Virus record (IMG/VR): IMGVR_UViG_3300042291_001013
Direction: 5' to 3' (one strand)
DNA: 64,000 bases
Source: a virus
Lineage: Duplodnaviria > Caudoviricetes
Within the stretch, counting starts at the first letter, position 1. Each line of letters begins with the position of its first letter. Made by a program: the position numbers and the translations under genes. Shown here in pieces: positions 5,426 through 41,467 of this stretch. The notes beneath the pieces were generated by a model. It worked only from the letters and a program-made list of their open reading frames with translations. It was not told where the DNA came from and did no database searches.

Positions 5426-5579
5426 GACCAACTCCTTTTTGATACTGGTACTCACGTTTGAGCCACCAGCGATAACGTTGAAAATATTCTTGCATGGTAT
5501 ATCGCGGTTCGCTGTATGCATCATGCTCTTCGCAGTTCTGCCGCCACAACTCTTCTAGCCATTTGCGAAAGGGCTTCAT
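5415..5579 (-). CDS. Small hypothetical protein (54 aa), not in ORF track
   Basis: Manual translation MKPFRKWLEELWRQNCEEHDAYSEPRYTMQEYFQRYRWWLKREYQYQKGVGRGS; overlaps both neighbours. Confidence 0.7.
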   Translation of the reverse strand: MKPFRKWLEELWRQNCEEHDAYSEPRYTMQEYFQRYRWWLKREYQYQKGVGRGS

Positions 5580-12520: not shown

Positions 12521-12712
12521 TTACCAGTGTCTAATTGTGTTGGCTATGATAAAGCCACAAGTTATAACATGTATTATAACCCAAAATGTTTTAAAGAACA
12601 AGGCTATTCGAGCTTCTCGAAGTGTTAGTATAGGCACATCAGGACGGTCATGATCTGACTCGCCCATCAAGTGCCCAGTTGCTCGGGCCCAGACTTTTTC
12701 TAAGCTATTCAA
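12521..12712 (-). CDS. Small membrane protein
   Basis: 63 aa with a C-terminal hydrophobic helix, between nrdA and nrdB. Confidence 0.7.
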   Translation of the reverse strand: MNSLEKVWARATGHLMGESDHDRPDVPILTLREARIALFFKTFWVIIHVITCGFIIANTIRHW

Positions 12713-15030
12713 AGTTTACACGCCTCGCAATCTTCTTCAAGATCAAAATCAATCTCAAGTAAGGGTGCAGGTGCATCTTCTTTGACCATCTTGCTGCCAG
12801 CCTTGTTGATTAAGCTGTAGTAGAATGTTTTCAGTCCCCAGTAGTGTGCTTGCATCAAGTTCCGGGCAATCAGTGTGGTGGGAACTTTGCGGTCAGGAAA
12901 GTGTGCAGGGTTGTAGAATGTGTTTGTTGAGATTGACTGATCAACGTAAGCCGCCAACACAGCCGCGGTCTTTAAGTAGCCGTCACAGTCTTTTTGTGCC
13001 CACATCATTTGATACTTGTTTTTAAGTTTGTGATACTCGGGCACAACCTGTGTTAATGATCCTGCTTTGGATTCTTTAACAGAGATTAGACTCATGGGCA
13101 TTTCAATGCCGTTGGTTGAGTTGATAACCACACTACTAGACTCTACAGGAGCAATGGCCATCAAGGTAGCATTGCGTACCCCGTAACTGCGCATCTCTGC
13201 TCGCAAACCTTCCCAGTTTAGTTCAGGAGCAAAGTCCGTGAGCTCGTTGACCCCGGCGCTACGTCTCTCCCAAGGAAAGACACCTTTACCATACCAGGTG
13301 CGGTCTGAATCTTTGCAACGGCCCCGCTCCTTAGCAAGCTCAACTGTGGCTTCGGTAAGGTAGAAAGCCTGATGTTCCATCCAGCTTTTGACTTCGGCCA
13401 AAGAGTCCTTGTCACCATATTGGAGTCCTCGTTTGGCATGCCAGTAAGCCAAGTTAGTAATGCCGATACCAAGCGGCTGGATTTCGTCATTCGATAACTG
13501 CGATTGGATTGACAGGAAGTCTTGGTAGTCAAGGATATTGCACAAGGATCTCTGCAGAATTCTACAAGCTCTGCGCATGTCTTCAGGATTCCGGAATGCA
13601 CCCCAGTTAATACTTCCAAGCGTACAGAGCGCGATTCGCCCATCAGCGTCATCCAGGCGCTTAAACGATTTTGTAGGTAAGAGAATTTCACAGCAAAGAT
13701 TACTCTGGTAAATGGTGTGATACTCAGAGTCAAACGGACCCTGGTTCATCACGTTGTCAATAAACACAAGATAGATACGACCAGTGTCTGTTCGCTCTTT
13801 CAGTATGCCCGACTTGAAAACTTCTTCAGCACTCATGGTCTTGGTGCGTAAGTCTTTACGTTTTTCGTATTTAACATACAGCTCTTCAAAGCGTTCGGTA
13901 TTTTTATAAAACGCTTCGTATAAGTCTGGTACTTCGTTGGGATCAAAGAATGTTATGTCTTCTTTGTTTTTGAATCGTCTCCAGAAGAAAGCACTAAGCA
14001 CAACCCCATAATCCATATGACGGACTCGGGTTTCTTCTGTTCCTTGGTTGTTCTTAAGGACAATAAGGTCATCAAACTGAAGATGCCAAATAGGATAAAA
14101 AACAGTAGCACTTGCATTACGAATACCTCCTTGACTGCAACTACGCAGGTCACCAAACCACTTCTTCAAGAATGGGATCATACCTGTGTGCATAATTTCA
14201 CCACCACGAATGGGTGAACCTAGTGGTCTTAGACGACCAATCTCCAAACCAATGCCGGCACGTTTGCTGGCATACTTGGCCATCATCTCGCCACTAGCGA
14301 ATATACTATCAAGATCGTCGTCACTCCTGATAAGCACACAACTACTAAACTGTTTAGTAGGAGTGCCGAGCCCTGCAAGCACAGGTGTAGCAAGAGTAAA
14401 CAAACCATCACTGGCGGCTTGATAATATTCTTTGATATAACGCATTCTAGCTGAGTTAGGCTCTTCTTTGTGAAACACTGTAGCCGCGGCCACCATGTAT
14501 CTGACTTGTGGAGTTTCATAAATTTCCTTAGTGCTACGATTACGAACAAGATACTTTTCAATCAGTTGTTCCACTGCCGCGTAACTGTATTGCTCATCCT
14601 TGACATGATCCAGCATGTCATTCATACGGTTCCAATCAGCCTCATCGTACCATTCCAGGAGTTCGGCAGTGTACAGGCCTGTGGCCACGTTTTTCTTCAC
14701 AATCTCATACAAGTGGGGAGGCTGATAGGAACCGTATACGTCTTTGCGTAACATGCTTAGTCGTTGTTTGCCTGCCACGTATTGATAGTTGGTATGTCCC
14801 ACGTCAGGGTTTGACTCTACGTCAATTAGATCCACTATGGCTCGTAGTGTAATTCCATCAATCTCAGTTGTTGTTATGCCGTCATAAAAATGCAGTTGAG
14901 CTTTGATTTCGATCATGCTCTGACTAACATCTGCTATTCCTGAACAGACTTTTGCAATCTGCGCTTGCCATTTTTCCAATGCCAACGGCTCGCGAGTTCC
15001 GTTGCGCTTTAAGACAGTAATTTGCTTCAT
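12709..15030 (-). CDS. nrdA: Class Ia ribonucleotide reductase alpha subunit
   Basis: N-terminal ATP-cone (VLKRNG), FSSC, SNLCCEI, ALCTL, C-terminal CEAC. Confidence 0.97.
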   Translation of the reverse strand: MKQITVLKRNGTREPLALEKWQAQIAKVCSGIADVSQSMIEIKAQLHFYDGITTTEIDGITLRAIVDLIDVESNPDVGHTNYQYVAGKQRLSMLRKDVYGSYQPPHLYEIVKKNVATGLYTAELLEWYDEADWNRMNDMLDHVKDEQYSYAAVEQLIEKYLVRNRSTKEIYETPQVRYMVAAATVFHKEEPNSARMRYIKEYYQAASDGLFTLATPVLAGLGTPTKQFSSCVLIRSDDDLDSIFASGEMMAKYASKRAGIGLEIGRLRPLGSPIRGGEIMHTGMIPFLKKWFGDLRSCSQGGIRNASATVFYPIWHLQFDDLIVLKNNQGTEETRVRHMDYGVVLSAFFWRRFKNKEDITFFDPNEVPDLYEAFYKNTERFEELYVKYEKRKDLRTKTMSAEEVFKSGILKERTDTGRIYLVFIDNVMNQGPFDSEYHTIYQSNLCCEILLPTKSFKRLDDADGRIALCTLGSINWGAFRNPEDMRRACRILQRSLCNILDYQDFLSIQSQLSNDEIQPLGIGITNLAYWHAKRGLQYGDKDSLAEVKSWMEHQAFYLTEATVELAKERGRCKDSDRTWYGKGVFPWERRSAGVNELTDFAPELNWEGLRAEMRSYGVRNATLMAIAPVESSSVVINSTNGIEMPMSLISVKESKAGSLTQVVPEYHKLKNKYQMMWAQKDCDGYLKTAAVLAAYVDQSISTNTFYNPAHFPDRKVPTTLIARNLMQAHYWGLKTFYYSLINKAGSKMVKEDAPAPLLEIDFDLEEDCEACKL

Positions 15031-15032
15031 TG

Positions 15033-15458
15033 TTACCTTAGTTGTTGTTTTATTTGTGCTAGTGTCATGCTGTGTCGAACCTTTTGAGGTTCTAGGTTGA
15101 TATTTACAACAGTATCCGCGTCCCAATTCAGTATATATTTTGATTTGTCTACCAGGACTAAATTGTCGCTATCTAGCTCAACCAACACCACATCCTGCAG
15201 ATCTTCACGATCTACAATAGCTATAGTATACAGGATTCCCAGCCCGCGAGCAAGTGGGCAATAGAGGTTGTCACTCAATAATTGCCAGGGATCTGGCCAA
15301 GTGGGTTGATCGTCCCAGTGCAAATGGTAAGCACGCCATGGCGTACCAAACCACCAGGAATTGATTAGATCCAATGCTTTTTGTTTATCGGCCTGGGCGG
15401 CTTGTTGTCTCAGTTGCGTCCAAGACTCAAGCCTTTCGGCAAAAGTTTGATGCCACAT
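15033..15458 (-). CDS. Hypothetical protein, possibly transglutaminase/cysteine-protease-like
   Basis: WPDPWQLL..NLYCPLARGLGILYT pattern; coupled to the fibre gene. Confidence 0.5.
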   Translation of the reverse strand: MWHQTFAERLESWTQLRQQAAQADKQKALDLINSWWFGTPWRAYHLHWDDQPTWPDPWQLLSDNLYCPLARGLGILYTIAIVDREDLQDVVLVELDSDNLVLVDKSKYILNWDADTVVNINLEPQKVRHSMTLAQIKQQLR

Positions 15459-25853: not shown

Positions 25854-27170
25854 ATGACCAGTCAGATCAACCCAAACAACATAGATGGCAGCTACCCAGT
25901 TGCTGGCCAGCCCAATAACACACAGGGCTTTAGAGACAATTTTACCAATATTAAACAGAATTTTCAATATGCAGAAACTGAAATTGATGATCTGCAAAAC
26001 AAAGTTGTTCTAAAACAAGCCCTGGCCGGTGGTACTTTGAACAACAACATGAACGACAATCTCATGTATGCTGTAAAGTTCCAAGACGTTAGTTACACCT
26101 ATGTGCAAAATGCCACTACTTCGGGCACTGTGCCCTTGGATTTTTCAGCTGGTCAATATCAATTTATTACCACAACAGGTCCTATCACTCTTTCCTTTGC
26201 TAACTGGCCAATTTCAGGATCAGCTGGACTTATTCAAATTGCTGTTAATATTACCAGTACTGCGCACACACTGACTTTGCCGTCAGCAGTGAGTCTAGGT
26301 ACTGTGGGAGTACAAGGCTACAGTAGTAATGTAATTACATTTGCTCAAACTGGTACCTATCAGTTTGCGTTTAGTTCTGTCAATGGCGGAACTACCATAA
26401 CTGTGTACGATCTCAATAGACCACTCAGCTACTACACCAACCCTGTGACCATTTCCAATACCGCAGACAGCACAGGAACATCGTCTGGTGCCCTGATTGT
26501 CAGTGGCGGCGTTGGTGTAGCCGGTAACTTGTACGTGGGCGGCAACATTGTGGGCAGTATTGTTGCAACCGGCAATACTTTTGCAGGCAACACCACTGTG
26601 GGCAATTTGCTCACAGCAGGATTTGTCAGTGCCACAGGCAACATCACTGGCGGCAACATCAATACCGCGGGCTTGGTATCAGCTATTGGTAACATCACTG
26701 GCGGCAACTTAAATTCTGTTAGCCTAAGTCTAAGCGGTAACGTGATATCAGCTCTAAACGTAACTGGCAACATAACTGGTGGCAACATCATGAGTGTGGC
26801 CATTGTCAGTGCGGCTGGTAACGTTACAGGTGGAAACTTGCGCACAGGCGGCTTGATCAGTGCAACTGGTACTGTTACCAGTGCATCAAATATCACTGGT
26901 GGCAACATCACCACAGCTGGTCAAGTCAGTGCCGCAGGTAATGCAATAATTCTTGCAGGCACAGCACCACCAGCTGGTGGCACTACTGGTGCTGGCTTGC
27001 GTATGTCCAGTACTAGCAATCTTGGTTTATTCTTTGGAGCCGGTACTCCCAGCCTTAGCGCCGCGCAAGGCAGTCTCTATATCAATACTACTGGAAGCAG
27101 TACATCAACTCGAATTTATATTAACACCAACGGCTCTACTGGCTGGACGGCTGTGACTACTGCGACTTAA
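25854..27170 (+). CDS. Fibre-like virion protein with Gly-rich repeats
   Basis: N-terminal GQPNNTQGFRDNF attachment region; repeated GN(I/V)TGGN units; TAAATA at 25815. Confidence 0.75.
   Translation: MTSQINPNNIDGSYPVAGQPNNTQGFRDNFTNIKQNFQYAETEIDDLQNKVVLKQALAGGTLNNNMNDNLMYAVKFQDVSYTYVQNATTSGTVPLDFSAGQYQFITTTGPITLSFANWPISGSAGLIQIAVNITSTAHTLTLPSAVSLGTVGVQGYSSNVITFAQTGTYQFAFSSVNGGTTITVYDLNRPLSYYTNPVTISNTADSTGTSSGALIVSGGVGVAGNLYVGGNIVGSIVATGNTFAGNTTVGNLLTAGFVSATGNITGGNINTAGLVSAIGNITGGNLNSVSLSLSGNVISALNVTGNITGGNIMSVAIVSAAGNVTGGNLRTGGLISATGTVTSASNITGGNITTAGQVSAAGNAIILAGTAPPAGGTTGAGLRMSSTSNLGLFFGAGTPSLSAAQGSLYINTTGSSTSTRIYINTNGSTGWTAVTTAT
26637..26909 (+). repeat. Imperfect coding repeats (GNITGGN, 5 copies)
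   Basis: Variants of GGYAACATCACTGGYGGCAAC recur. Confidence 0.8.
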
Positions 27171-28635
27171 TTTTACCCAGTAACTGTTTAAGTTTGGCGC
27201 TTTGTACGTCTGCTGTGATTTTTTCTGCAACCTCGGGTTTTAATTCTTTGCCACCTGGTTGATAATCCCAAGCGTGTGTTCCTGTTGGCTTTTCCCACTT
27301 GGTGGATGTACTGTCCGTTGTTTCGGTGTCAGCAGCCTTGACTTGACTCCGGGCCTTGATTGAATCCATAATGGAACTTTGTGGTCGATTGTATCCTGTT
27401 CCTTCGTCCCCGCCTTCATCAGTAATGCGCATAGTTTCAATGTTGTACTCCAGATCGATTTTTTGACCAACGCCGGTCGAGCTTCGCGACTTCATACACT
27501 GTATTTGGTATTTGCCACGTTCCTTCATTGCTCGGCTTGTGAAAATGCCGAACACGTTATCTGCTGTGTTGATCTTGGAAATACCACCTGAAATATGCGA
27601 GTGATCAAATTCAATTTCTTCCACAGCGGATCTGTTTAACTGCGATGCAGTTACCATTAGGATTCCTAGCTCTTTGGCTAAATTACGGAGTTCTTCTGAA
27701 ACATACTTGTCTTTCACAAACAAGTCGTTGGGACTGACTTTGGCACTTACAGGCATCAGCAAATCCAGGTAGTCAATCATCACAAAGTCTACCTTCTTGC
27801 CTGTTTGAATTTGATACTCTTTCAAATAAGCACGAATGTCATTGATGTTGCTTTGTGCTGGCAAGCCCTTGACTTGATAGTTGCCCGACTTCTTGGCCAC
27901 CAACTTGACCTTGAGCTCTGTGGTGTCTATGTCCTTGCGAATGTCTTTTGTTGACATATTGGTCAACATAGCATCAGTTCGCAATGACGTAAGCTCTTCT
28001 GACAGTTCTAGTGTGATGTAGACACCGCTGAGTCCTGATTGTAGCCAGTTCAAGGCAATGTTCATCATGACCAGTGACTTGCCTGATCCTGAGCCACCTG
28101 CAAAGATGTTGAGTTCACCACGGCTGAATCCGCCATACAACAATCTGTCCAGTTGTGGCCAGCCTGTGCTTACTTGTCCGCCCGAGTTGAAGTATTTCTC
28201 AATGCGAGCCTTGGGATCAGCAAAGTAGTCTGTACCCATGTCTTTAGTAAGAGATATCTGTACTGCATCTTTGATGAGTTTTTCAACAGGTTCATATTCG
28301 CCTTTCTCCAGCAAGTCTGCTGATTTCAAAATAGCACGTTCCAGTTCTTGGCGTCGAGTAAATGCTTCAAACTCGCCCATGAACCAGTCAAAGTGACCTT
28401 CGTTCAAGTCCGGCACCGGTTGCAGTTTAACGCCTGTGGTTGCTGAAATCTGCATCCTATCAGGCATGGTCTTGTGCTTGTCTGAGTGTTCTTTAATGAA
28501 CTCAGCCGCAGGTCTCAAACTCCGGTCAAAGTTTTGCGGGTTGTAGATGTTTTGAACACGCACATAACTTGTGGCATCTTCCAGCATCATCTCTAAAAAT
28601 AATCGTTGGACATCAAGTCCGTAGTCTTTAATCAT
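27157..28635 (-). CDS. Replicative DnaB-like helicase (T4 gp41-like)
   Basis: GGSGSGKS, FVMIDYLDL, VTASQLNR, KSR. Confidence 0.93.
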   Translation of the reverse strand: MIKDYGLDVQRLFLEMMLEDATSYVRVQNIYNPQNFDRSLRPAAEFIKEHSDKHKTMPDRMQISATTGVKLQPVPDLNEGHFDWFMGEFEAFTRRQELERAILKSADLLEKGEYEPVEKLIKDAVQISLTKDMGTDYFADPKARIEKYFNSGGQVSTGWPQLDRLLYGGFSRGELNIFAGGSGSGKSLVMMNIALNWLQSGLSGVYITLELSEELTSLRTDAMLTNMSTKDIRKDIDTTELKVKLVAKKSGNYQVKGLPAQSNINDIRAYLKEYQIQTGKKVDFVMIDYLDLLMPVSAKVSPNDLFVKDKYVSEELRNLAKELGILMVTASQLNRSAVEEIEFDHSHISGGISKINTADNVFGIFTSRAMKERGKYQIQCMKSRSSTGVGQKIDLEYNIETMRITDEGGDEGTGYNRPQSSIMDSIKARSQVKAADTETTDSTSTKWEKPTGTHAWDYQPGGKELKPEVAEKITADVQSAKLKQLLGKIKSQ

Positions 28636-28661: not shown

Positions 28662-29108
28662 TTAGAATTTTATTTTGTTGCCTAATTTTAACAAATAGGC
28701 AAAAGGATCCGGGTCAAACAAATCAAACAACACACACCCATTGTAGTTCCAGGTAGTTGAACGTGTGGATGGGTAGTCAAGATATTCTTTTATGGAACCG
28801 GGTGTTTGGGTTGATACGATGGGTTTGTATTCAATCCTGGTTAGCACTATGTCTTGATTAATTTTTATGCCTGCCAACGAAACATTCAAAAGTTCTACAG
28901 ATTTTTGGTCATGACTGTTTTTTCCTGATAGTACAAGCATTACTGTATTTGGCAAATAACTCAAAATTTCAACAGTTTCTATTCCATTGTTGATTTTTCG
29001 TGTAGTTGGCAACATCTCAAAATCAGAACCATATGCATTTATAGTCATTGCATTATCGCTGTGTTTGAGATTTAAAATTAGAAGAAAGTTTGTACGTTGA
29101 ATCCGCAT
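28662..29108 (-). CDS. Hypothetical protein (AT-rich accessory)
   Basis: 148-aa ORF coupled to the radical SAM gene. Confidence 0.65.
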   Translation of the reverse strand: MRIQRTNFLLILNLKHSDNAMTINAYGSDFEMLPTTRKINNGIETVEILSYLPNTVMLVLSGKNSHDQKSVELLNVSLAGIKINQDIVLTRIEYKPIVSTQTPGSIKEYLDYPSTRSTTWNYNGCVLFDLFDPDPFAYLLKLGNKIKF

Positions 29109-30442
29109 TGTTGTATTACTTTAACAGTATCAATTGCATTGCGATACCTTGACATTTGATTTTGTCGGAAAGAACTATGATCAATTGTTTTTTCTAACTT
29201 TGTACCTGGCAATATACCCGGTAATGTGCATTGAACTTTTAGTACTGTGCCATTGGCAAAATCACTGTGATTTAAAAACCATTGTCTGACCTGCTGATAA
29301 TCTGACTCTGTTTCTGTTGGATATGACAGAATTATTAGCAGATTCATCGGTACCTGATATTTTTTAGCCATCTCCAAATGATGATCAAGATCTGCATTGG
29401 TAAAATTCTTACCTAGATTGATTCGAACATGCTCAATGATGCTTTCAACGCCAGTTAGTAAAAATCCATTGCTTTTTTTTATTAATTTCCACATGTCTTC
29501 TTTGTGTTGTGTTGCAGATCTAATAATAAAAGATCCTACCCAATGTATCTGGGCCTGAGCGTTTGTTTGGTCATTGTAGGCAGCTATTAGTTGCAATAGT
29601 TTTTTAAACTCTTTTAAATTACCATTGCAAATGCTACTAGCAAATTGAAATCTATACACCTTGTAAGTTTCTATATGTTTTTGTATTTGTTCAAAAATGT
29701 TTTCAGCAGTTAGATACTGAAACTTTTCCCAGAATGCAATTACATCACAAAATTCACAGGCCTGCACACAACCACGGCTATCCACAATTGGCAATGTTGG
29801 ATATCCATATCTAAACAACCTGTAGTCAGAGTAATCTGGGATAGGAAGTTTATTAAATTCTGTGTTGGATTGCCAAGCATGGGAGTTAATGCCAGGATAA
29901 GACATATTTCCACGCACATATTCAACCAAGGACGTTTCGCCATCACCAGTGATATAGTCGTCAATAAATCCTAACTTTTTAACGCGGTCAGGAAATTTAA
30001 ACAAAGAATTTTCCAATGTCTGCAATCCAGGTCCGCCAATTACTATTTTGGCGTCAGGCGCTTGCTGTCGTAACATTGCGCACAGCCAAACAGTAAAGGT
30101 CTGCGTTTGTGAGGAAAACAAACTCAGTCCAATAATAGTAGGGGCATGCGACAATATTTCTCGAGCGTAAAAATCCAGCATTATAACTAAATCGTCCGCT
30201 ATTTCTTCATGTATTTTTTGTCGATTAAAAAAATCAAGAAACAGGTTTCGTTTGGGATTGTGTTGTATTTTGTTGTATATTTCAATATTAAGATCGAGCG
30301 CCACGCATGCGATTCCGTTGGCTTGCAATGATGCTTTTAATACTGCTGGGGCTGCCAATGGAGTATCATCGTCAACAAAAGGCATCGACGCAACAACAAC
30401 TTTAACAATATTCTGTTGATTAGTATTGTAGTCGCTTAACAA
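29078..30442 (-). CDS. B12-binding radical SAM enzyme (class B methylase-like)
   Basis: APAVLKA, LDLN and KIVIGGPG in a cobalamin-binding domain; SRGCVQACEFC. Confidence 0.88.
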   Translation of the reverse strand: MLSDYNTNQQNIVKVVVASMPFVDDDTPLAAPAVLKASLQANGIACVALDLNIEIYNKIQHNPKRNLFLDFFNRQKIHEEIADDLVIMLDFYAREILSHAPTIIGLSLFSSQTQTFTVWLCAMLRQQAPDAKIVIGGPGLQTLENSLFKFPDRVKKLGFIDDYITGDGETSLVEYVRGNMSYPGINSHAWQSNTEFNKLPIPDYSDYRLFRYGYPTLPIVDSRGCVQACEFCDVIAFWEKFQYLTAENIFEQIQKHIETYKVYRFQFASSICNGNLKEFKKLLQLIAAYNDQTNAQAQIHWVGSFIIRSATQHKEDMWKLIKKSNGFLLTGVESIIEHVRINLGKNFTNADLDHHLEMAKKYQVPMNLLIILSYPTETESDYQQVRQWFLNHSDFANGTVLKVQCTLPGILPGTKLEKTIDHSSFRQNQMSRYRNAIDTVKVIQQCGFNVQTFF

Positions 30443-31409
30443 GTTGCTTTTTCCTTAGTTCTATTTTGATTCGACTGGTTTCTCTAGCTGACATTATAGT
30501 TAGCAATGCTCCGAGCCGCCCCAACACAATTACCGCATCATTAACATCTTTGCAACCTTCTGGCCATTCTGGTATACTTACCGCCCAGCCAAGTTCTACT
30601 GCACGATCTATTAGTTCAAGTCCTGCTTTGTCTTGATCAGGTATTACTGTGATTTGTTTTCCAAGACTTCTAATCAGTCTTGCTTGTGTATCACTAATGG
30701 TGTTGTGCATTACTGCTAAGCCAGATATGGATAACGCACAAAATACACCTTCCATGACAAACACATGTTCCCATTCAGTCTTTTGTAAATCCGTACCAAA
30801 CACATATCCAGGTTGCATATGATTAATATACTTGGGCACCTTGTTGTCTAAGAATCTAGCAGTCCAGCCAACTACAGTATTGTTCCAAGTAAACGGCACA
30901 ACCACATGAGGCCTAATCCAATGAATTCCGTCCGTTTTAATAGCAGTCATGATAGGATAATCTTTGGGTACCTGGCGAGTTTGCAAATAATCCCAGTAGT
31001 CTGTCATTTCAGGAGTTACAACTTCTGAGTATGGTGGTAAGTCGTCAGACTCTTCAAATGTTATATCTGCTAATGCTTGAAATGTTTTATTACGGTCATC
31101 TAGAATACCGTGTATGCTACGATGTTTAAGACTTTCTAAGTTTAAGTACTCAACTTCATTTTCAGAAACACCTAACCATCCTAGTAACTTTTTTGCTTTA
31201 AAACTTACTGAACGTCCAAGAACGAAACTTGCTGTGTATGAACAATTAAAACAGTGATAGCTCCAGCCTTGTTCTGCAACTTTGATTCCGCCACGTTGAC
31301 GTTTGTCTTGGGAGTTACCGTTATGCGTACAGCAAACCGCATTGAAACTCAGCCAGCCACTGGGACTGCTTTTTCTTTTTGCGGGTAGGTAACTTAGGAT
31401 ATCCAGCAT
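30420..31409 (-). CDS. DNA primase (T4 gp61-like)
   Basis: N-terminal Zn ribbon (CC...HCFNC); TOPRIM EG and PDQD; KDVNDA. Confidence 0.88.
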   Translation of the reverse strand: MLDILSYLPAKRKSSPSGWLSFNAVCCTHNGNSQDKRQRGGIKVAEQGWSYHCFNCSYTASFVLGRSVSFKAKKLLGWLGVSENEVEYLNLESLKHRSIHGILDDRNKTFQALADITFEESDDLPPYSEVVTPEMTDYWDYLQTRQVPKDYPIMTAIKTDGIHWIRPHVVVPFTWNNTVVGWTARFLDNKVPKYINHMQPGYVFGTDLQKTEWEHVFVMEGVFCALSISGLAVMHNTISDTQARLIRSLGKQITVIPDQDKAGLELIDRAVELGWAVSIPEWPEGCKDVNDAVIVLGRLGALLTIMSARETSRIKIELRKKQLVKRLQY

Positions 31410-31440: not shown

Positions 31441-32511
31441 TCAACGATACTGGACGTTTTCAACCTCGCCGTTGTCAAAAATTGCCACAGCAGAAACTGG
31501 GCTTTGGAATTGCATGGGCACATAACCTGAGCCACCATTCACAATGGTTACTCCGGCAATTTGATTGTTGAGACCAATTGTACAGGTGGCTTCAGCACCA
31601 GCACCGTCGCCTAGAATTCGAATTCTAGGCGGCGCTGTGTACTGATATCCAGCATTGGTTATGGTTATACCAGTTACTACTCCATTGGCAACTACTACGT
31701 TTCCACTGGCACCATAACCAATTGAGTTGTTTAGAGCCAGGCGCAGGATTGGGTGAAATCCAACTACATTGAAATAGTCTGTGGTAGTTTGTGACAGGTA
31801 CTCACGAGATTCAGTTACATCATACCAGGCAGACTCATAGTTTTGAGCGGCTTGCACCTTGGCTGTACCGGTGTAACCCACAAGGTCAAATTTCACAGTG
31901 GTAAAGCTAGACTCATTTGTGGGCATGAAACTGGAATAGAATTCAGTTTGATAAATTGCCACTTGTGGTTGCGGTGTGTTGGCCCAGTCCGGCCAGTTGG
32001 TAGATGATCCGCTTACAAACTGATTTTTGCCATACAGGTCTGGCACTGTGCAATCTGTACTGGGAATAAATTGCGGCAATATGCTGTCCACAATGTTTAT
32101 GTCTGCTCGTGCTTCGGAGTTTGCATTGACATACACTGCCTGCACATAGTTTCCTGAAGTTCGTTGGATACTGTAGCTGGCTGGCTGTGATTCAATATTG
32201 ACAGTTTCATTTGTTTCAAGCACCACTTTTACTCGGCCTGTTGATGCACTAAGTACTTCCATGCTCTTGGTCAATAATAGTCGATCGCCAGCTTGGTTTA
32301 CCAAGCGGAAAACAAAAGAACTACCTGTAATGTTGACAGGTTTTTGGTCTTGGTTAATAAATTCAAATAACAAGACGTTGTCAACGCCTTTGTTGATGGT
32401 TAAAGTTTTAGCATACACTGGGTCATACCTCGCTGTGAAATATCCACCGCTGGTGTCTATCAAAAGTACACGGGCAATTTGCTGATATAAGTACGCAGTG
32501 GTTGAATACAT
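31441..32511 (-). CDS. Putative baseplate/tail structural protein
   Basis: Start MYSTT; C-terminal ITNAGYQYT.PP and VNGGSGY beta-repeats; TAAATA at 32528. Confidence 0.65.
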   Translation of the reverse strand: MYSTTAYLYQQIARVLLIDTSGGYFTARYDPVYAKTLTINKGVDNVLLFEFINQDQKPVNITGSSFVFRLVNQAGDRLLLTKSMEVLSASTGRVKVVLETNETVNIESQPASYSIQRTSGNYVQAVYVNANSEARADINIVDSILPQFIPSTDCTVPDLYGKNQFVSGSSTNWPDWANTPQPQVAIYQTEFYSSFMPTNESSFTTVKFDLVGYTGTAKVQAAQNYESAWYDVTESREYLSQTTTDYFNVVGFHPILRLALNNSIGYGASGNVVVANGVVTGITITNAGYQYTAPPRIRILGDGAGAEATCTIGLNNQIAGVTIVNGGSGYVPMQFQSPVSAVAIFDNGEVENVQYR

Positions 32512-32532
32512 AGGAATCCTTGACAAGTATTT

Positions 32533-32910
32533 ATGGGTAACAATATTTTTGAAAAACTGACGGAAAAGTACCCGTTTATAACCTTGTGCGTGTACGCTAA
32601 CGCAGAGTATGTGGGCGTTGTGCAGAATCGTGATGATACTGTGACAACAATCTACGACTTTGGCAGTGTGCAAACACAACAAGAAAAACTAGAATTTCTA
32701 GAGTTGGCCAGCGTTTGGTGGTGGGAAAGCAACAGATCTATCCCTATCAATATTTTTCTGCGCAAAGAGTGGGACAAGTTTCGCCCAACTCTGCGCACCT
32801 TTGTAAACAAGGATCTTGAAATCTTGCACGGACCCACTTGCAGTTTGCTGGACATTGCTCGCAAGAAAAGCAAACGAAAGAGCATTACGCTAGTGCGGCG
32901 TCTTGAGTGA
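32533..32910 (+). CDS. Conserved phage hypothetical protein
   Basis: 125 aa, WWWESNRSIPINIFL; divergent from the previous gene. Confidence 0.75.
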   Translation: MGNNIFEKLTEKYPFITLCVYANAEYVGVVQNRDDTVTTIYDFGSVQTQQEKLEFLELASVWWWESNRSIPINIFLRKEWDKFRPTLRTFVNKDLEILHGPTCSLLDIARKKSKRKSITLVRRLE

Positions 32911-33463
32911 GTAGATTCATATGCAGGGCAACAAGGGCCGCGTAGGAAACTGCGTGGCTTTTTTTAAATGAGTAGCCTCTACTGTCGTCCCCGTTCCACA
33001 CTTCAGCAAATACTTCTTCCCAAGAGCAAGTTTGCAAGTGTGCTTTGCCTGGACGTATGATTGAAATAAATGCGGCCATCCTGGGAATTGAGTCTGGCTT
33101 CATGACTCGCAGTAGGTCTGTATAGTTTCCCACATGCACCAGCTGAGCGGCCCAGGCGTTGTCAGTCCACAGTCTTGACCATGATGGTTCTATGCCCAAC
33201 ATCTGTTCATAATGTTCGGGACTTTTTACCAGTCCATAAACGCTCATGTTCAAGAAGTCTAGTTTAAAGTATCCACGCTGTTCCGCAGTTTCATAATCTA
33301 ATGCCGCACAACCAATGATGGGATCTGTGGGTATTTCTGTTACATAAATGCCCGAGTTGTGTTTGCGCACACCAGTTGCAGATTCAAGCCGTGCAGGAAC
33401 ATGCTGAATCAATTTCAGCAATGCGTCCCTGTTGGGCATGTCAATGTCAATGTCTGCGCTCAT
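32885..33463 (-). CDS. Miniature DNA polymerase III alpha (DnaE)-like protein
   Basis: DIDID, KHNSGIYV, GYFKLDFL, ISIIRPG and GYSFKKSHAVSY occur in DnaE order within 192 aa. Confidence 0.8.
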   Translation of the reverse strand: MSADIDIDMPNRDALLKLIQHVPARLESATGVRKHNSGIYVTEIPTDPIIGCAALDYETAEQRGYFKLDFLNMSVYGLVKSPEHYEQMLGIEPSWSRLWTDNAWAAQLVHVGNYTDLLRVMKPDSIPRMAAFISIIRPGKAHLQTCSWEEVFAEVWNGDDSRGYSFKKSHAVSYAALVALHMNLLTQDAALA

Positions 33464-34167
33464 AGTCTTACTATACCAGTATTGGGCACGTGGTTTCGAT
33501 TGTAGGTTCCATTGCGTATTTTAACATCTTCCTGTTCAATCTGCAACCTTGTGTCTGCGCTGACAGGGTATTGTGGTAAAACTCTTTCCACATAGTTCAA
33601 ATGCTCAATTGGTGTGTGGTGCATGTCATACTCAATCACGATTTGATCGTGTATGACTTCTTTGAAACTGGGCTTGACAGTGTCTAGCACATTTTGGTAC
33701 AGTTTGAGAATATCATAGTTTGGATTGTAATCTTTGTCTTGATACTGATCGGATTGATGCATGGGCACCATGCTTAAAAAGTGCCAGGTCACACCAGTGT
33801 GCTCTAGTAGAGTTTTTACTGCGGATATAAATGCAAAATCACGTACCATGCAACCACGTTCGTCAATCCAACGTTTGACCCAGTCTCGAGGATAGGTACC
33901 TTGTGTGTATACATTGCCCGGTGTGACCCAGTTCCGGTCCACATATCTATCTTCACGTGCTGTGTTGGTCCAACACACAATCACAGTGTCGCCAGGTTTG
34001 AATTGGTTGCGCTGATTGCACTCATACACAGAGTTTAATATGTAATGGTTGCCGGCCCCTACTCTACCCCAGTTGTGAAATTCCTGTGCTTGGTAGCTCA
34101 AGATATCAGCCCAAGTACTCCACACATAGCTGGTATAGCTACACCCAAATGTAAACAATCTATTCAT
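33460..34167 (-). CDS. SGNH-like protein
   Basis: FGCSYT, NWGRVGAGN, DMHH. Confidence 0.7.
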   Translation of the reverse strand: MNRLFTFGCSYTSYVWSTWADILSYQAQEFHNWGRVGAGNHYILNSVYECNQRNQFKPGDTVIVCWTNTAREDRYVDRNWVTPGNVYTQGTYPRDWVKRWIDERGCMVRDFAFISAVKTLLEHTGVTWHFLSMVPMHQSDQYQDKDYNPNYDILKLYQNVLDTVKPSFKEVIHDQIVIEYDMHHTPIEHLNYVERVLPQYPVSADTRLQIEQEDVKIRNGTYNRNHVPNTGIVRL

Positions 34168-34883
34168 AGCAATCTTTCTAGCTCAGGCCAAAGCCATTCA
34201 CGCACCAAGACTTCACTGGCTTCAGTACCATAGTGTCCGTCGTGCGTGTATGGCAACTTTCGCTTTTCGCCTTCGTCACGACCCACGCCATTGGCCAATT
34301 TGAGACTGTTTCTAAACCATTCATAGCCCGGAAGGAACAATGTGTCCCAGTCCACAAACCAACTGAAAAATATCAGCTTCTTGTTGTGTGCATCACACAA
34401 GGCCTTCATGGCCAACATGTTGTGCAAGGTCTGATACTGCCAGAACCGTGCGCCAGCTGACTGGTCAAGCCAAAAACGATCAAACTGCTCAAGGTCATAG
34501 TCAACCATCTTGCCCAGCCAGTACTTGTTCTCATGTACATTGAGTGTGTAACACCCCATGTCTTTGTAGATGTTGTTGTGTGTGGAGTCTTGATAGTGCT
34601 GGGGTGCAGGTATGGGATGTGGCCGTAGATTCTGTTGCACTTCTTCCCAGGCTCGCATGCCGATCACCACACGACTGGGTTCAGTCAGTTGTACAATCAC
34701 AAGATCCACCTCGGGATCTTTTACAATGTCATGTAACTTCTCAACATAGAAAGCATTGCCAGCACCTGAACTGCAAGCTCTAACCAGCTCACTGCTTAGT
34801 TTGGCACTGACATGATCAGGCCAACTCTGGCCATAGTCTGCTGTGCTAAAGCTGTCACCAAGGGCGGCTAATTTACGATACAT
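34164..34883 (-). CDS. SGNH-like protein
   Basis: LGDSFS, SGAGN, DGHY. Confidence 0.7.
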   Translation of the reverse strand: MYRKLAALGDSFSTADYGQSWPDHVSAKLSSELVRACSSGAGNAFYVEKLHDIVKDPEVDLVIVQLTEPSRVVIGMRAWEEVQQNLRPHPIPAPQHYQDSTHNNIYKDMGCYTLNVHENKYWLGKMVDYDLEQFDRFWLDQSAGARFWQYQTLHNMLAMKALCDAHNKKLIFFSWFVDWDTLFLPGYEWFRNSLKLANGVGRDEGEKRKLPYTHDGHYGTEASEVLVREWLWPELERLL

Positions 34884-35220
34884 CACACAGGGCCACAGCA
34901 ATCTTAACAGCATCTTCTGCACGATCTCTAGCCAATAATGCATCTGCCACAGTAGGATGTTTTTTTGCCAACTCCAACATTTGTTTTTCTTGTTCCATTT
35001 TGCGACGAACCCACTGAACCGCTTCTTGTGCTACGCCGTCCAGTTCAATCTGTGGAATACTCGAACTGAACTGCACCCAGTCAGTCCCATTGTATACTTC
35101 AAAATTTGATCCATTGTACCGGACCATGCCTGCACTGTGTCGACTCATGTCAACATAAGGTGTGCTGTAATTGTTGGCCGCAATATAGATGCCCGGCCCC
35201 GGTGTAATATTTTTAATCAT
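34873..35220 (-). CDS. Conserved phage hypothetical protein
   Basis: GMVRYNG..FEVYNGTDW motif plus a coiled coil. Confidence 0.7.
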   Translation of the reverse strand: MIKNITPGPGIYIAANNYSTPYVDMSRHSAGMVRYNGSNFEVYNGTDWVQFSSSIPQIELDGVAQEAVQWVRRKMEQEKQMLELAKKHPTVADALLARDRAEDAVKIAVALCDVS

Positions 35221-35221: not shown

Positions 35222-35893
35222 TCACCATCCTGCCTTTGTTAAGATATCCCGTGCATACTCTTGGTCTGCTGGATAGTTGTTAAATTTCTTTTGCCACTCG
35301 TCACTGTCAATGTAGGACCATATCATACCAATTTGATCTGATGCAAGACCGGCTAGAAACTGTTGTCCTGATTCACAGTTGTAGATAATCCAAGGACTGA
35401 TACGACCAGTTGTGACAGCATAGCACATGGCCACACTACTGCCATAACGCAAACAGTCCTGTGGTTGAGCAGAGTTTTTGTCTGCCCAGTCCATGCCAAA
35501 CTCCACTGCTCTTGCTAGAGCATCTGAAACGTTTTCCACACGCAAATACCCAATCAAGTATTCAGTGTAGAGCTGGTCGCTGGACCAATTGTCAATTTTC
35601 TTTTGTTGTTTTAGCAACCACAGCAGATAACGCTCAGGTGCAATTACTTTTGTGTTTACACAGTAACGACCAAACTTTACAAATGCTCGATAGTATGCTG
35701 AGTCCGCAAAATCATCAAAGGTTTTTAACTTGGCTGATCCCTGTGCTTGTTCATAAAACTTAATGTAAGCTCTGTACCCCAACTGTACACCACGTTCGTC
35801 TTGTTCGAATCTCCTGCGCTTGGGCTCACACATGTGAACAGCTATGCTAGTTTCTCTAGCAAACTGTTTTTTACAGTACTGGCATTGGATCAT
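35222..35893 (-). CDS. Zn-finger-containing hypothetical protein
   Basis: N-terminal CQYC...HMC. Confidence 0.7.
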   Translation of the reverse strand: MIQCQYCKKQFARETSIAVHMCEPKRRRFEQDERGVQLGYRAYIKFYEQAQGSAKLKTFDDFADSAYYRAFVKFGRYCVNTKVIAPERYLLWLLKQQKKIDNWSSDQLYTEYLIGYLRVENVSDALARAVEFGMDWADKNSAQPQDCLRYGSSVAMCYAVTTGRISPWIIYNCESGQQFLAGLASDQIGMIWSYIDSDEWQKKFNNYPADQEYARDILTKAGW

Positions 35894-36597
35894 TGTAGTA
35901 TTTTATGCTCTTGTATGTAATTTGTCAAGAACTCATTGAGTTTTGCATGATGACCTATTGCCGGATGTGTCATATCTGGAGGAACATGCGGTGCACCTGG
36001 TGGATACTTTTTAGGCTCCACACCTTGTGCGGCTTGCCAGGCTGTTGCTCGCCACTGATATCCATCAACAATTTCTGGGCAACAAAACAAACTCAATCTA
36101 GAATCTTCAAGATATTCCTGATACAAATCATCGGCCTGCTGAAACATCAACACTCGATGCCCTCTAGATTTCAAACTGTCAATTGTGCTGAGCATACGGT
36201 ACATGAGATCTTCAGTACGATCCAAAATGCTGTATACTTCAGTTTTGAGTTTGGTTTCCACAAACTGTTCAGACTCTTTTTGGTTCCAGCCTGTTTGCCA
36301 TCTGTAAGCAAACTCTTGGTTTTGCGGATTTACCCATCGTCCTTCAAAATCATTTTCAGATTCACAGATGGGTATTTCTAGTCTGCTGAGAAAGGTCATA
36401 CCCAACACATACAAGGTCGGTGGTGCTGTGTAACTGTGTTTAAGAGTGGTACGAAGTATTCTGCTGTTGGCGCTGCCACTAACAGCAATACTGTGGGCGT
36501 TAGCTATACCTAGACGCTGTGCTAGATCTTGATGGCCGTTGCCCAATGCGTAGGAATGTGTGTAACTGCATCCGTTTACAACCAATTGTTGTATCAT
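35890..36597 (-). CDS. SGNH-like protein
   Basis: NGCSYT, SGSAN, THPAIGHH. Confidence 0.7.
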   Translation of the reverse strand: MIQQLVVNGCSYTHSYALGNGHQDLAQRLGIANAHSIAVSGSANSRILRTTLKHSYTAPPTLYVLGMTFLSRLEIPICESENDFEGRWVNPQNQEFAYRWQTGWNQKESEQFVETKLKTEVYSILDRTEDLMYRMLSTIDSLKSRGHRVLMFQQADDLYQEYLEDSRLSLFCCPEIVDGYQWRATAWQAAQGVEPKKYPPGAPHVPPDMTHPAIGHHAKLNEFLTNYIQEHKILQ

Positions 36598-38440: not shown

Positions 38441-39150
38441 TATCGCCAGCCCATGGTCATTGATTTTAGTATTTCAAGAAAGTTGTCATGGCATTCTTGA
38501 TCGTTGTGCGTAACTGACTTTTCATAATCATACGGGCCCTTGGGCATCAAGCAAGGCAGTTGATCTTTGGGCCACACACAGTCTACCCAACTCCAGTCCA
38601 TGTAGGCCATACCATGTGGAATGTACACAAAGGGAATACGAGCTTGTTGTAGTTTGCGCAACCCGTCACTGAGTACATAGAAATTTTCTTGGCGCTTGAG
38701 TCCTGAATTGTGCAAGTCAGCAACGTAATTTTTGATTGCTGTTTTTTGTTCGTCAGTGACCATGCGTTCGTGATTGCTGTGCAACAAATTCACAATGGTA
38801 TCACTGATTACCATGGTCCTGTGCTGACGTACTGTGGCTTCAACTTGACTTTTGTATCCTTTGAGCAAGATGTTTTCCATGGTCAAGTAATTGATAATAT
38901 CACCGTCTTGGCGCACAGGAATGTCCATTCGATCACTGCTGGTGCAACCCACTATCACATAGTCTGCTCCGTTGGCAATGGCATAATCAATTTGCAAACG
39001 TATTAGAAATATAGTTGCGCCTGCACGACCAAGACTGACGTGATCAAAGCCTTTATACTCAGCAAACATCTGCAAAAAACTAGTGACTTCTTTTTGCGGA
39101 TGGTCCAAGGTCATGTAACTGTCGCCGCAAGTGAACAATCGCTTTTTCAT
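38440..39150 (-). CDS. SGNH-like protein
   Basis: CGDSY, LGRAGA, THN. Confidence 0.65.
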   Translation of the reverse strand: MKKRLFTCGDSYMTLDHPQKEVTSFLQMFAEYKGFDHVSLGRAGATIFLIRLQIDYAIANGADYVIVGCTSSDRMDIPVRQDGDIINYLTMENILLKGYKSQVEATVRQHRTMVISDTIVNLLHSNHERMVTDEQKTAIKNYVADLHNSGLKRQENFYVLSDGLRKLQQARIPFVYIPHGMAYMDWSWVDCVWPKDQLPCLMPKGPYDYEKSVTHNDQECHDNFLEILKSMTMGWR

Positions 39151-40616
39151 TTGATTTTCATCCACTCTAGTTTCTCTGCAGAGAAAGGATAGTTGGCTTC
39201 TCGATAGAACTGTTTGCGCTTGGTCAAGTGGCGCTTGGCAAACTTGCAGGTTGAGGTGATGTCCCAGATTTGAACATGATCTTTGTCTTCTGCTTTTCTT
39301 ATGCCGCGTCCAATGCTTTGGATAACGCGGACAAAACTTTTCCCGGGTTCCACAAGAACCAAATTAAAAATCCTAGGGATATTAATGCCCACAGCGGCAA
39401 CACCATAGGTAGCCACAATAATCTTATCAGTGCTGTCTGCAACTTCATCATATTCATCTTGTCTATCTTTTGCTTTGGTTGCACCCGAAACAAACACAGC
39501 ACGATCTCCCAGTCGAGATACCAGTTGGCGGCCGCATTCAGTGCGATCTACCAACACTAGAGTGTTGCCTGTTTCGTTTACGTGTCGTATGAGTTCTGCC
39601 ATGGCATCTAGTCTGCCCGACTCTTCCAACAAATATTTAAGCTCACTTTGATAGTTGGAGTACTCCACATGATCCTGTAACTGCACAATGTTCACATGAC
39701 ACTGTGCCAACACACCTTGTTGTTGTAGCTCGTTAGCAGTTAATTTGCCAATTACAGGTCCCAGGCTCACCAACAAGGATTGGCTTTCAAACTTTTCCTT
39801 GGGTATAGTTCCAGTCAATCCCCAGCGAATTGGCACTCTAGCCATTACGCCAGTAAGCAGGGTCTTGAGTGCATCAGCTTTGGCCATGTGTACTTCATCC
39901 ACCATTACACATACCACATCCTCAATAAAGTCTTGTATGGTCACATTGCCTACACCTGCTTTGGTATTCTTTAGTAATACGTTCAGGCTCTGCCAGGTAC
40001 AGATAGTGTGCTTGTGACCATGTTCTTTTCTGTCACCAAAATAAACGCCCACATCTAGTCCCACATTGCGATAGTCTTTTTCTGTTTGTGTCACAAGACT
40101 TTTGTTGGGCACAATCACAATACTTCGTCCATGTGGCTCCACTGCCGCACTTAGAGTAGCTGTCATAATTGTTTTGCCTGCGCCTGTGGCCACTTCTTGT
40201 ATGCATTGTGGGTTGGTCAAAAAGTTGTTCACAATCTCCACTTGGTAGTCACGCAACAGGATAGGCTTACCTTCTGCAGGATGTCCTTTGGGCCAGGTTT
40301 TGTGTGCAAACGTTTGTTCTGTAACTTGATCAAACTCAAATGTAGTTGAGTAGTCGCGCTGATCATCTAGTTCAATGTCCCAGTTGTACTTTTCTAATAA
40401 GGGCAAGATCTCGGGCAGTAGATTGGTATATGTTGATCCGCCTAGTTGGAAGTAACTGACTTTGCCGTCCCAGCGTCCTAATCTCACTGCTGGCAAGTAT
40501 CTGGCGTAGGGAACGTCATACTTGAATGCTGTGACCAGGCGCTTGCGCATGTCAAGGTCCAGACCTTCTATTTTGATGTTTACTTCATCACGTATAACGA
40601 TTGTGGCTTGTTTCAT
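39147..40616 (-). CDS. uvsW: SF2 DNA helicase UvsW-like
   Basis: LRDYQ, ATGAGKT, DEVH, GLTGT, QSIGRGIR. Confidence 0.92.
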   Translation of the reverse strand: MKQATIVIRDEVNIKIEGLDLDMRKRLVTAFKYDVPYARYLPAVRLGRWDGKVSYFQLGGSTYTNLLPEILPLLEKYNWDIELDDQRDYSTTFEFDQVTEQTFAHKTWPKGHPAEGKPILLRDYQVEIVNNFLTNPQCIQEVATGAGKTIMTATLSAAVEPHGRSIVIVPNKSLVTQTEKDYRNVGLDVGVYFGDRKEHGHKHTICTWQSLNVLLKNTKAGVGNVTIQDFIEDVVCVMVDEVHMAKADALKTLLTGVMARVPIRWGLTGTIPKEKFESQSLLVSLGPVIGKLTANELQQQGVLAQCHVNIVQLQDHVEYSNYQSELKYLLEESGRLDAMAELIRHVNETGNTLVLVDRTECGRQLVSRLGDRAVFVSGATKAKDRQDEYDEVADSTDKIIVATYGVAAVGINIPRIFNLVLVEPGKSFVRVIQSIGRGIRKAEDKDHVQIWDITSTCKFAKRHLTKRKQFYREANYPFSAEKLEWMKIK

Positions 40617-41467
40617 TCTAAGGTTACTTGCTGTACCCATTGACGTCGGGCAATTTGAAATAGTAATTCTTCTCGACTGCCTGTGTACTCTAAATCTGCA
40701 ACAGGAAATCGCAAGGGTTGTGCTTTTATATTATACACACTTGTGATGTTTTGTGCAACAAAAAAGTCTTGATGTTGGTCAATGTAGTGTTGTACTGACC
40801 CATATATTTTGCTCAGATTTCTATCATGAAACTGCACGTTGAAGTCTGCACTGTAGTGACTGAACGGGCAAAATGCATCATCAGCAATGTACTTATCGTT
40901 GTCATGAGCAAGGTCTTCTACAGTTTTGCCAATTTCACAGTAATTTAGATACACGGTGCCAAACTTTATGTTCCAGTCGCCGTATGCACTTTGTAATTCA
41001 GGTGCAAGTTGATGTATCTTGGGCATGCCAAACCAAGTGCAAACAAATCTTGGTTGAGTACCTGCGGCAACACTTTCACATCTATGTACTGCCAAGTTTA
41101 ATTCAGCCAAGGCTTGACGAACTGACTCGGGCGCACGAAGCCAGTAGTCTGAATCTTGCTGATCCAGTAGCCCGTGGTAGCGTTCAAAGATGTTGTGCAA
41201 GTAATTGAGACAATCCTGTGTGTACTCAAATGGCCTGTGTATGATTGGATCCCAAAGATTGATTGTGGCAATGCAACGTTGAATGTCGGCCACAGCACGT
41301 TCACGCTCTTGTAGTGGAGTGCCAAATCCGTAAAATCTATTGGGATGGTCCAAGGGCCAAGCCTGACGCTCGTGCATACGTTGAGCCCACAAGTCTGCCA
41401 CAGGTGTTTTACGAACACGAAAATTCAATGTCAGTGGGTCTTGTTGGCCTAGAGTAATCAAAAGCAT
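40613..41467 (-). CDS. Hypothetical protein
   Basis: 284-aa ORF with its own promoter. Confidence 0.75.
   Translation of the reverse strand: MLLITLGQQDPLTLNFRVRKTPVADLWAQRMHERQAWPLDHPNRFYGFGTPLQERERAVADIQRCIATINLWDPIIHRPFEYTQDCLNYLHNIFERYHGLLDQQDSDYWLRAPESVRQALAELNLAVHRCESVAAGTQPRFVCTWFGMPKIHQLAPELQSAYGDWNIKFGTVYLNYCEIGKTVEDLAHDNDKYIADDAFCPFSHYSADFNVQFHDRNLSKIYGSVQHYIDQHQDFFVAQNITSVYNIKAQPLRFPVADLEYTGSREELLFQIARRQWVQQVTLE

Follow-up and report, generated by a model that had tools for sequence, protein, structure and literature searches.

The C-terminal half of a probable two-subunit, minimal DnaE-type nucleotidyltransferase encoded by an uncultured T4-like jumbo phage

A protein of 192 amino acids that carries catalytic motifs of DnaE, the alpha subunit of DNA polymerase III (Pol III), may be a complete small polymerase, the relic of a larger gene or one part of an enzyme whose remainder is encoded elsewhere. 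This question is raised by an open reading frame (ORF) with an ATG start and a stop codon, located on the minus strand at positions 32885-33463 of a viral DNA stretch of 64,000 nucleotides (IMG/VR record IMGVR_UViG_3300042291_001013; the whole stretch is hereafter called the window). The source is an uncultured giant (~360 kb) T4-like jumbo phage. A first-pass annotation of the window described the protein as a 192-amino-acid minimal polymerase core, either one piece of a split replicase or repurposed for priming, end-filling or nucleotide transfer. The analysis presented here favours a split enzyme, in that the ORF most probably encodes the C-terminal subunit (C-unit) of a two-subunit minimal C-family (DnaE-type) nucleotidyltransferase which is typical of T4-related group 2.2 jumbo phages and whose N-terminal subunit (N-unit) is the product of a separate gene. 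For these phages a split minimal Pol III alpha was already described by comparative genomics (Iyer, Anantharaman, Krishnan, Burroughs and Aravind 2021, Viruses 13:63, PMC7824862). The ORF of the window is the C-terminal (Mg- and template-binding) unit of this published system and is in that sense already known. To the published concept we add structural models, selection figures, co-occurrence counts, a rare fusion and a controlled complex prediction.

The motifs of the 192-residue protein follow in the order DIDID (residues 4-8), KHNSGIYV (34-41), GYFKLDFL (63-70), KPDS (122-125), IIRPG (135-139) and GYSFKKSHAVSY (163-174). In pairwise BLASTP the alignment with Escherichia coli DnaE was colinear, with residues 13-139 on 488-641 (expectation value, E, 3e-4), residues 163-175 on 753-765 (E 0.01) and residues 4-22 on 403-418 (E 0.79, alone not significant). 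A profile built from 86 relatives was compared with E. coli DnaE by hhalign and aligned residues 55-140 with 541-642 (E 2e-5). The E. coli sequence was also read directly, which places PDFDVD at 400-405, KFD at 553-555, GYGFNKSH at 753-760 and GPGRGSG at 359-365; residues D4, D6, K67, D69 and H170 of the C-unit are the equivalents of E. coli D401, D403, K553, D555 and H760. The aspartates D401, D403 and D555 are active-site residues of E. coli DnaE, and H760 is its proposed steric gate (PMC8485763). The protein matches the PHROGs family phrog_11778, annotated as DNA polymerase, with E 6.5e-53, its residues 3-188 covering positions 7-194 of the 197 in the profile, and a short stretch of it also matches phrog_405, the family of full-length DnaE, at profile positions 773-809. 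The DnaE homology of the C-unit is far beyond chance. The single sequence searched against PDB chains gave no match at E up to 10, so the relationship with DnaE is visible only by profiles and structure.

The structure was predicted by AlphaFold from an alignment (A1) of the 86 diverse relatives, and the model has a predicted local distance difference test score (pLDDT) of 95.9 and a predicted template modelling score (pTM) of 0.87. In a Foldseek search against the PDB only C-family polymerases occupied the 17 top rows, the highest probability being 1.00 and the lowest E 1.3e-3; as an E of about 1e-3 misses the 0.001 line, the alignment by VIA-align was taken as decisive. For this purpose 13-15 solved C-family polymerases were used, both for the C-unit and for the fused form described below. 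The C-unit model superposed on them with Z 6.5-10.0 and a root-mean-square deviation (rmsd) of 3.4-4.5 Å over 184-189 of its 192 residues, covering residues 399-784 of E. coli, 460-841 of Taq, 418-811 of Mycobacterium tuberculosis DnaE1 and 970-1299 of PolC, and the best unrelated fold reached Z 3.3. The superposition on DnaE that the first-pass annotation had proposed therefore bears out its palm and fingers homology, with the model aligning only with C-family polymerases. The annotation was equally right that the PHP, clamp-binding and OB domains are absent, and the thumb is to be added to this list. Within the structural range, E. coli 399-784, about 190 residues stand in place of about 385 residues of DnaE. 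The BLASTP alignment shows where the condensation mainly took place: in the thumb region only residues 9-35 stand opposite E. coli 408-510, and the stretch of the fingers that leads from the RPG motif to the steric-gate helix is reduced from E. coli 641-753 to residues 139-163. The C-terminal end of the chain corresponds to about E. coli residue 784, and the full thumb and the beta-clamp, HhH, OB and tau-binding regions are absent.

The first residue of the C-unit corresponds to E. coli DnaE 399-401, that is, to the DxD strand itself. In DnaE this strand is preceded by about 40 residues by the GRGS loop, the triphosphate-binding block (R362-G363-S364 in E. coli), which is absent from the 192-residue ORF. 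The earlier statement that all hallmark blocks occur in order thus holds for the motifs which it listed but not for GRGS, and the idea of a minimal core of 192 residues had to be given up, since the ORF starts only with the DxD strand, and relatives encode the palm half with GRGS in a separate gene.

This gene was found in the isolate phages Phosso, Atu_ph07 and PAC2, each of which has a single PF07733 match in its genome, located in an ORF of 170-180 amino acids. The ORFs carry GVGRGS, end with ...LDFxEFL(N/K/E)-stop and lie 44 to ~224 kb from the C-unit. In two uncultured relatives whose C-units are 76% (G001) and 72% (G003) identical to that of the window, the N-unit lies 99 kb and 86 kb away, respectively. 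The N-unit family is phrog_11127, with a length of ~172 amino acids and a distance of 35-220 kb from the C-unit in related phages, and its C-terminal end (..L-D-x-x-E-F-L-R/K/N) matches the DnaE segment immediately before PDxDxD. The two genes co-occur: the N-unit is present in 95 phage records and the C-unit in 96, with nearly equal genus tallies, and the N-unit has more than 7,900 metagenomic cluster representatives, an abundance like that of the C-unit. In the window itself a 54-amino-acid ORF (5415-5579, minus strand) which ends with ...KGVGRGS-stop was considered as an N-unit and was rejected as a chance occurrence (tblastn E 0.14-0.39); it overlaps a real gene of 180 amino acids (4982-5524) in a different frame.

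The two units also occur naturally as one chain. Three proteins of 375-376 amino acids (P0174, P0391 and P0392), from independent metagenomic sources, have an N half which aligns with stand-alone N-units and a C half which aligns with C-units, residues 190-373 being 37-38% identical to the protein of the window. The PF07733 match spans the fusion junction with E 4.8e-16. The fused form is rare, with 3 clusters at 90% identity against thousands of the split form, and it is not mentioned in the part of Iyer et al. (PMC7824862) used here. Its AlphaFold model has a pLDDT of 82.6 and is low only in the first ~80 residues. It aligned with the palm and fingers of DnaE with Z ~21 and rmsd 3.0-3.1 Å over 288-289 residues (M. 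tuberculosis DnaE1 302-800, Taq 289-830); the E. coli rows reached Z 13-16, one of them covering 270-773, and the next rows outside the C family were other transferases of the Pol-beta fold with Z of at most 4.1.

The separate units were modelled as a complex with a same-genome pair from G001, consisting of its C-unit (L018, 75-76% identical to that of the window) and its N-unit (P0271). The interaction prediction score from aligned errors (ipSAE) was 0.90 in three runs, compared with 0.00 for the best of 3 controls; among solved complexes 58 of 80 attained this mark, and among mismatched pairs 2 of 110. The contacts agreed by at least 96% between runs and the pLDDT of the partner was at least 85. 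The predicted interface places residues 2-10 of the C-unit, which hold the DxD strand, against residues 133-146 of the N-unit, which hold a strand and the GVGRGSS loop. The complex prediction supports binding of the two units, and the heterodimer considered below is this modelled one.

The distribution of the C-unit was profiled in phage and metagenomic collections. By tblastn, homologues were found in 96 phage records, 95 of which cover at least 80% of the protein, with 35-42% identity and the same length. All phage records listed with a homologue are jumbo phages or fragments of them, including Phosso, the PA5oct group, Atu_ph07, GAP32, CBB, XacN1, SCTP-2 and Rak2/121Q-like phages, and several of the homologues are annotated as DnaE-like DNA polymerase III alpha. 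The closest isolate protein is at most 42% identical to that of the window, and no near-identical DNA was found among 50,697 phage records. More than 7,900 cluster representatives of the C-unit were found in metagenomic protein collections, and an exhaustive HMMER scan of 1.84 billion representatives gave 362 matches; in the best 150 of these 362 the non-fragments are nearly all 180-231 amino acids long, with the match beginning within the first residues. The identical protein of 192 amino acids occurs on a metagenome contig of 361,093 bp and on at least 11 other contigs. As to expression, no RNA data set was listed as containing the stretch, and two aquatic runs contained only 5-6% of its sampled words. 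The C-unit is a member of an uncultured, very abundant lineage from aquatic metagenomes.

Conservation was assessed at two levels. Among the 86 diverse relatives, whose identity goes down to 28%, D4, D6, K67, D69, R137 and P138 are invariant, while D8, H35, G38, P45, K140, K167 and H170 are each present in 90% of them or more. An ortholog set was then formed from 80 complete coding sequences of IMG/VR loci and that of the window. All 81 are intact, and D4, D6, D8, K67, D69, R137, P138, K140 and H170 are present in every one of them. The median ratio of nonsynonymous to synonymous substitution rates (dN/dS, Nei-Gojobori) is 0.11, with a range of 0.03-0.21 over 373 pairs with unsaturated dS, and the value for the window and its closest relative (L007) is 0.084. 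The gene is under strong purifying selection with its catalytic residues retained; a lack of conservation of the catalytic aspartates in orthologues, which the first-pass annotation had named as a refutation, was not observed.

The features of the locus are collected in Table 1. In all 34 related loci which are long enough the order is C2H2-like gene, 115-amino-acid gene, C-unit, convergent 125-amino-acid ORF, 413-amino-acid protein and primase, the 115-amino-acid gene being present in 26 of them. Synteny of the primase was found in 31 of the 34 and in the three isolate phages; Phosso, Atu_ph07 and PAC2 keep the order from the C-unit and the convergent ORF to the primase, having an opposite-strand gene of 360-400 bases at the position of the convergent ORF, and PAC2 also has a C2H2-type gene upstream. 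The N-unit has neighbours of its own. In PAC2 and Phosso a MazG gene precedes it by a few genes, and after it come a GroES-like co-chaperonin and, at a greater distance, an AAA ATPase, which in PAC2 is a clamp loader (phrog_168, E 2.4e-81) two genes from the N-unit and in Phosso is an annotated AAA-ATPase.

Table 1. Features of the window and the basis of their assignment
Feature	Position	Strand	Basis or remark
Probable C-terminal unit gene of split minimal Pol III alpha (Mg-binding palm half and condensed fingers)	32885-33463	-	ORF; phrog_11778; AlphaFold; VIA-align
Codons D4-I-D6-I-D8, metal-binding DxD strand at the extreme N-terminus (E. coli D401-F-D403-V-D405)	33440-33454	-	Conservation
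Codons K67-L-D69, strand of the third catalytic Asp (E. coli K553-F-D555)	33257-33265	-	Invariance; BLASTP and hhalign
Codons R137-P-G-K140, fingers motif (E. coli FRPG, ~638-641)	33044-33055	-	Conservation; BLASTP and profile alignment
Codons Y164-S-F-K-K-S-H170, fingers helix with putative steric-gate His (E. coli Y754...H760)	32954-32974	-	Conservation; BLASTP
C2H2-like protein, 223 amino acids, upstream neighbour	35222-35893	-	phrog_11058, E 1.1e-54; upstream in 34/34 IMG/VR loci and PAC2
115-amino-acid gene, in most relatives adjoining the C-unit start	34873-35220	-	26/34 related loci
Convergent 125-amino-acid ORF, 26-base overlap with the 3' end of the C-unit gene	32533-32910	+	phrog_11637, E 2.4e-32; 34/34 loci
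413-amino-acid protein inside the replication block	31441-32682	-	C-terminal ~70 residues match virion repeats, PHROGs E 1e-11 to 1e-5
Toprim DNA primase, downstream	30420-31409	-	PF13155 Toprim_2, E 3.8e-5; phrog_47, E 2.2e-30
Radical SAM protein between primase and DnaB-like helicase, overlapping the primase start	29078-30442	-	PF04055 on the identical gene of contig L090; without PHROG match
DnaB-like replicative helicase	27157-28635	-	phrog_19, E 6.1e-70; PF03796 DnaB_C on the identical gene of contig L090
UvsW-like helicase	39147-40640		
ATP-dependent ligase	3596-4969		
Ribonucleotide reductase large subunit	12709-15126		

Some further observations were made on the neighbouring genes. The convergent 125-amino-acid ORF shows 70-90% identity in relatives, in most of them above the identity of the C-unit itself. 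The repeats matched by the 413-amino-acid protein are those of baseplate-wedge and giant virion structural proteins, and its equivalent in Phosso and Atu_ph07 is annotated as virion structural protein. The two genes directly upstream of the C-unit (33460-34167 and 34164-34943) were considered as partners and rejected. At this position they are absent in 33 of the 34 related loci, which makes the segment 33460-34943 an insertion rather than a part of the system; in one locus (L064) the first of them has a weak match, which is encoded by the opposite strand and located beyond the C-unit. Together with the gene at 35890-36597 they form a trio on the minus strand, with 235-259 amino acids and an N-terminal G-(C/D)-S-(Y/F)-(T/S) like block I of SGNH/GDSL hydrolases. 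None of the trio had an NCBIfam match, and the Pfam and PHROG scans, made for the first two, gave no match either; the mutual similarity of these two is barely detectable (E 0.18).

Other polymerase genes were searched in the relatives. The PHP domain (PF02811) gave no match in three complete jumbo phage genomes and two partial close relatives, and the fingers profile PF17657 gave sub-threshold matches only inside the C-unit genes of related phages. G001, which has both units and is the only close relative checked for this purpose, also encodes a family B polymerase of 892 amino acids. In Iyer et al. (PMC7824862), a T4-type family B enzyme is reported throughout group 2.2, and no other Pol III domains are reported. 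Of the genes which the first-pass annotation had proposed to look for, the family B polymerase was thus found in the relative G001, and PHP was missing from the five related records. Its suggestion of one piece of a split replicase stands as far as a split polymerase is concerned, but the term replicase was not borne out, G001 having the family B polymerase.

How the two proteins may work together can be proposed as follows; the catalytic activity, the substrate and the biological role are those which we infer from the evidence above. The C-unit would supply the second half of a Pol-beta-like palm, which comprises the N-terminal DxD strand and the KxD strand with the third catalytic aspartate. 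It would also supply shortened fingers, in which the RPG motif is joined by the YxFKKSH helix and its steric-gate histidine. The N-unit (~172 amino acids) would supply the first palm half with the GVGRGSS triphosphate-binding loop. The two most likely assemble non-covalently, the strand and loop of the N-unit packing against the DxD strand of the C-unit, so that the pair would form one active site within ~360 residues. The enzyme would lack the PHP domain, nearly the whole thumb, the OB region and the regions which bind the clamp and tau. In the active site Mg would be bound through D4, D6 and D69, the triphosphate of the deoxynucleoside triphosphate (dNTP) through the GRGS loop of the N-unit and K67, and the sugar would be checked by H170. 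In the proposed role the pair would be a DNA polymerase which copies a template with dNTPs at low processivity, as an auxiliary of the T4-like family B replicase; having hardly any thumb and neither a proofreading domain nor a contact with the clamp, it would probably be a distributive helper of that replicase. From the neighbouring genes, the simplest guess is that it extends primers or fills gaps. A more specific version, in which the pair is a working thumb-less and clamp-independent polymerase that takes RNA primers from the adjacent primase and passes them to the family B replicase, is offered only tentatively and we consider it rather doubtful.

Several points weigh against the two-subunit enzyme and its proposed activity. 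The N-unit of the phage's own genome was not seen, being absent from the 64-kb window by tblastn with five N-units and the fused form, although a position outside the window fits the distances between C-unit and N-unit in relatives; among the 120 best N-unit clusters there was no row with the 361-kb contig that carries the identical C-unit. The complex was modelled with a pair from the relative G001 and not from the genome of the window, and the halves of a split enzyme can score high through their likeness to the solved single-chain DnaE. No family for the 192-amino-acid protein was found in Pfam at E up to 0.1 or in NCBIfam at E up to 0.01. The thumb, which in DnaE holds the primer-template duplex, is nearly absent, and this makes ordinary polymerase activity uncertain. 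In the literature no biochemical or genetic test of any member of the split mini-enzyme was found; the PaBG paper was considered as an experimental precedent and set aside, as it deals with other Pol III subunits. Finally, the first 75-95 residues of the N-unit precede the PF07733 match without an assigned fold (residues 1-95 of P0271 and 1-80 of P0174). In the fused model this start has a pLDDT of 45-61, and in the complex model residues 3-11, 31-33 and 65-78 of the N-unit contact the C-unit; the leading segment could be a remnant of the linker between PHP and palm or a new element.

The alternatives differ in how much of the enzyme is thought to be present and in what it does. If the 192-amino-acid protein were a self-sufficient minimal polymerase acting alone, the presence of the three catalytic aspartates, the KxD lysine, the RPG motif and the steric-gate helix would be explained, as would its confident folding by itself in AlphaFold. 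However, such an enzyme would have to work without the GRGS loop and without the first helices and strand of the palm, while the missing palm half exists as a co-occurring separate gene, is fused to the C-unit in a rare lineage and is predicted to complete the beta-sheet. The C-unit covers E. coli 399-784 only, whereas the fused model covers the palm from ~270, and self-sufficiency is highly improbable. That the ORF is what decay or a frameshift has left of a host-derived full-length dnaE has next to no probability: such an origin would account for a length of 192 against 1160 amino acids and for the Pfam and NCBIfam thresholds which are not reached, but the check for a frameshifted dnaE found no continuation in the flanking sequence and no other DnaE-like stretch in the whole window. 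A remnant is also hard to reconcile with an ORF length that stays at 185-200 amino acids though the neighbours vary among relatives, with thousands of homologues of equal length, and with the intactness of all orthologous coding sequences, their low dN/dS and their invariant catalytic residues.

Two further readings accept the pair of subunits and change its function. In one of them the two-subunit enzyme is active without copying a template, as a terminal or untemplated nucleotidyltransferase, a modifier of primer ends or a maker of a nucleotide signal. This would suit the loss of the thumb and of the processivity and clamp-binding parts, and CCA-adding enzymes, MenT toxins and Cid1-type transferases are indeed weak structural neighbours (Z 2.5-4.1), but the match to DnaE and PolC (Z ~21) far exceeds that to other nucleotidyltransferases. 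Moreover, the fingers elements which position template and dNTP, namely RPG and YxFKKSH with its steric-gate histidine, are strongly conserved, and the N-unit and C-unit genes both lie in replication modules, so this function is unlikely. In the other reading the phage would replicate its DNA mainly with this pair instead of using it as an auxiliary, as the universal keeping of both genes in the phage group, beside genes for primase, helicase and clamp loader, might suggest. This is extremely improbable in view of the family B polymerase encoded by G001 together with both units and of the T4-type family B enzyme reported throughout group 2.2 (Iyer et al., PMC7824862); the mini-enzyme also lacks a proofreading PHP or exonuclease domain and a clamp-binding region. 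An auxiliary two-subunit polymerase of the DnaE type is the reading which we prefer.

Should the pair be active, no other polymerase of the C family would come near it in smallness, its ~360 residues being divided between two chains, compared with a single chain of more than 1,100. It would then reveal the minimal catalytic core of the bacterial type of replicase and serve as a model for the origin of this type, as argued by Iyer et al. (PMC7824862). It would also mean that very abundant aquatic giant phages have a mixed replisome, with a family B enzyme and a DnaE-type enzyme. If in addition the hand-off of primers were true, a division of labour like that of Pol alpha or of Bacillus subtilis DnaE would be carried out by the smallest known C-family core, and the fused form would be a tractable single-chain model of an ancestral Pol III.

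The system of the window can be compared with four known ones. The C-unit of Iyer et al. is the nearest, having the same length, the start at the DxD strand, the motifs and the conserved block with primase and helicase; the protein of the window is 35-42% identical to those of Phosso, PA5oct, Atu_ph07, GAP32, CBB, XacN1 and SCTP-2, and in these phages the partner phrog_11127 is encoded far away. The window differs in belonging to an uncultured aquatic lineage and, compared with most relatives, in its two extra genes directly upstream (33460-34943). The fused form of 375-376 amino acids differs from the system of the window in being a single chain and rare. Bacterial DnaE and PolC (E. coli, Taq 2hpi/3e0d, M. 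tuberculosis DnaE1 5lew/7pu7 and PolC 3f2b) share the Pol-beta-like palm, the three aspartates, the KxD lysine, and the RPG motif and steric-gate histidine helix of the fingers. In the phage the palm is divided between two polypeptides, so that GRGS and the catalytic aspartates are not in one chain, the C-unit has no PHP domain, beta-clamp motif, HhH, OB or tau-binding region, and, unlike bacterial DnaE, it stays under the curated thresholds of PF02811, PF07733, PF17657, PF14579 and TIGR00594. For the role, the closest parallel may be the DnaE of B. subtilis, which extends primers beside PolC and then hands them off (PMC5627055). By analogy the phage pair would likewise be a second polymerase of the C family beside a main replicase, with the difference that B. 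subtilis DnaE is a full-length single chain and that the partner replicase in the phage would be of family B.

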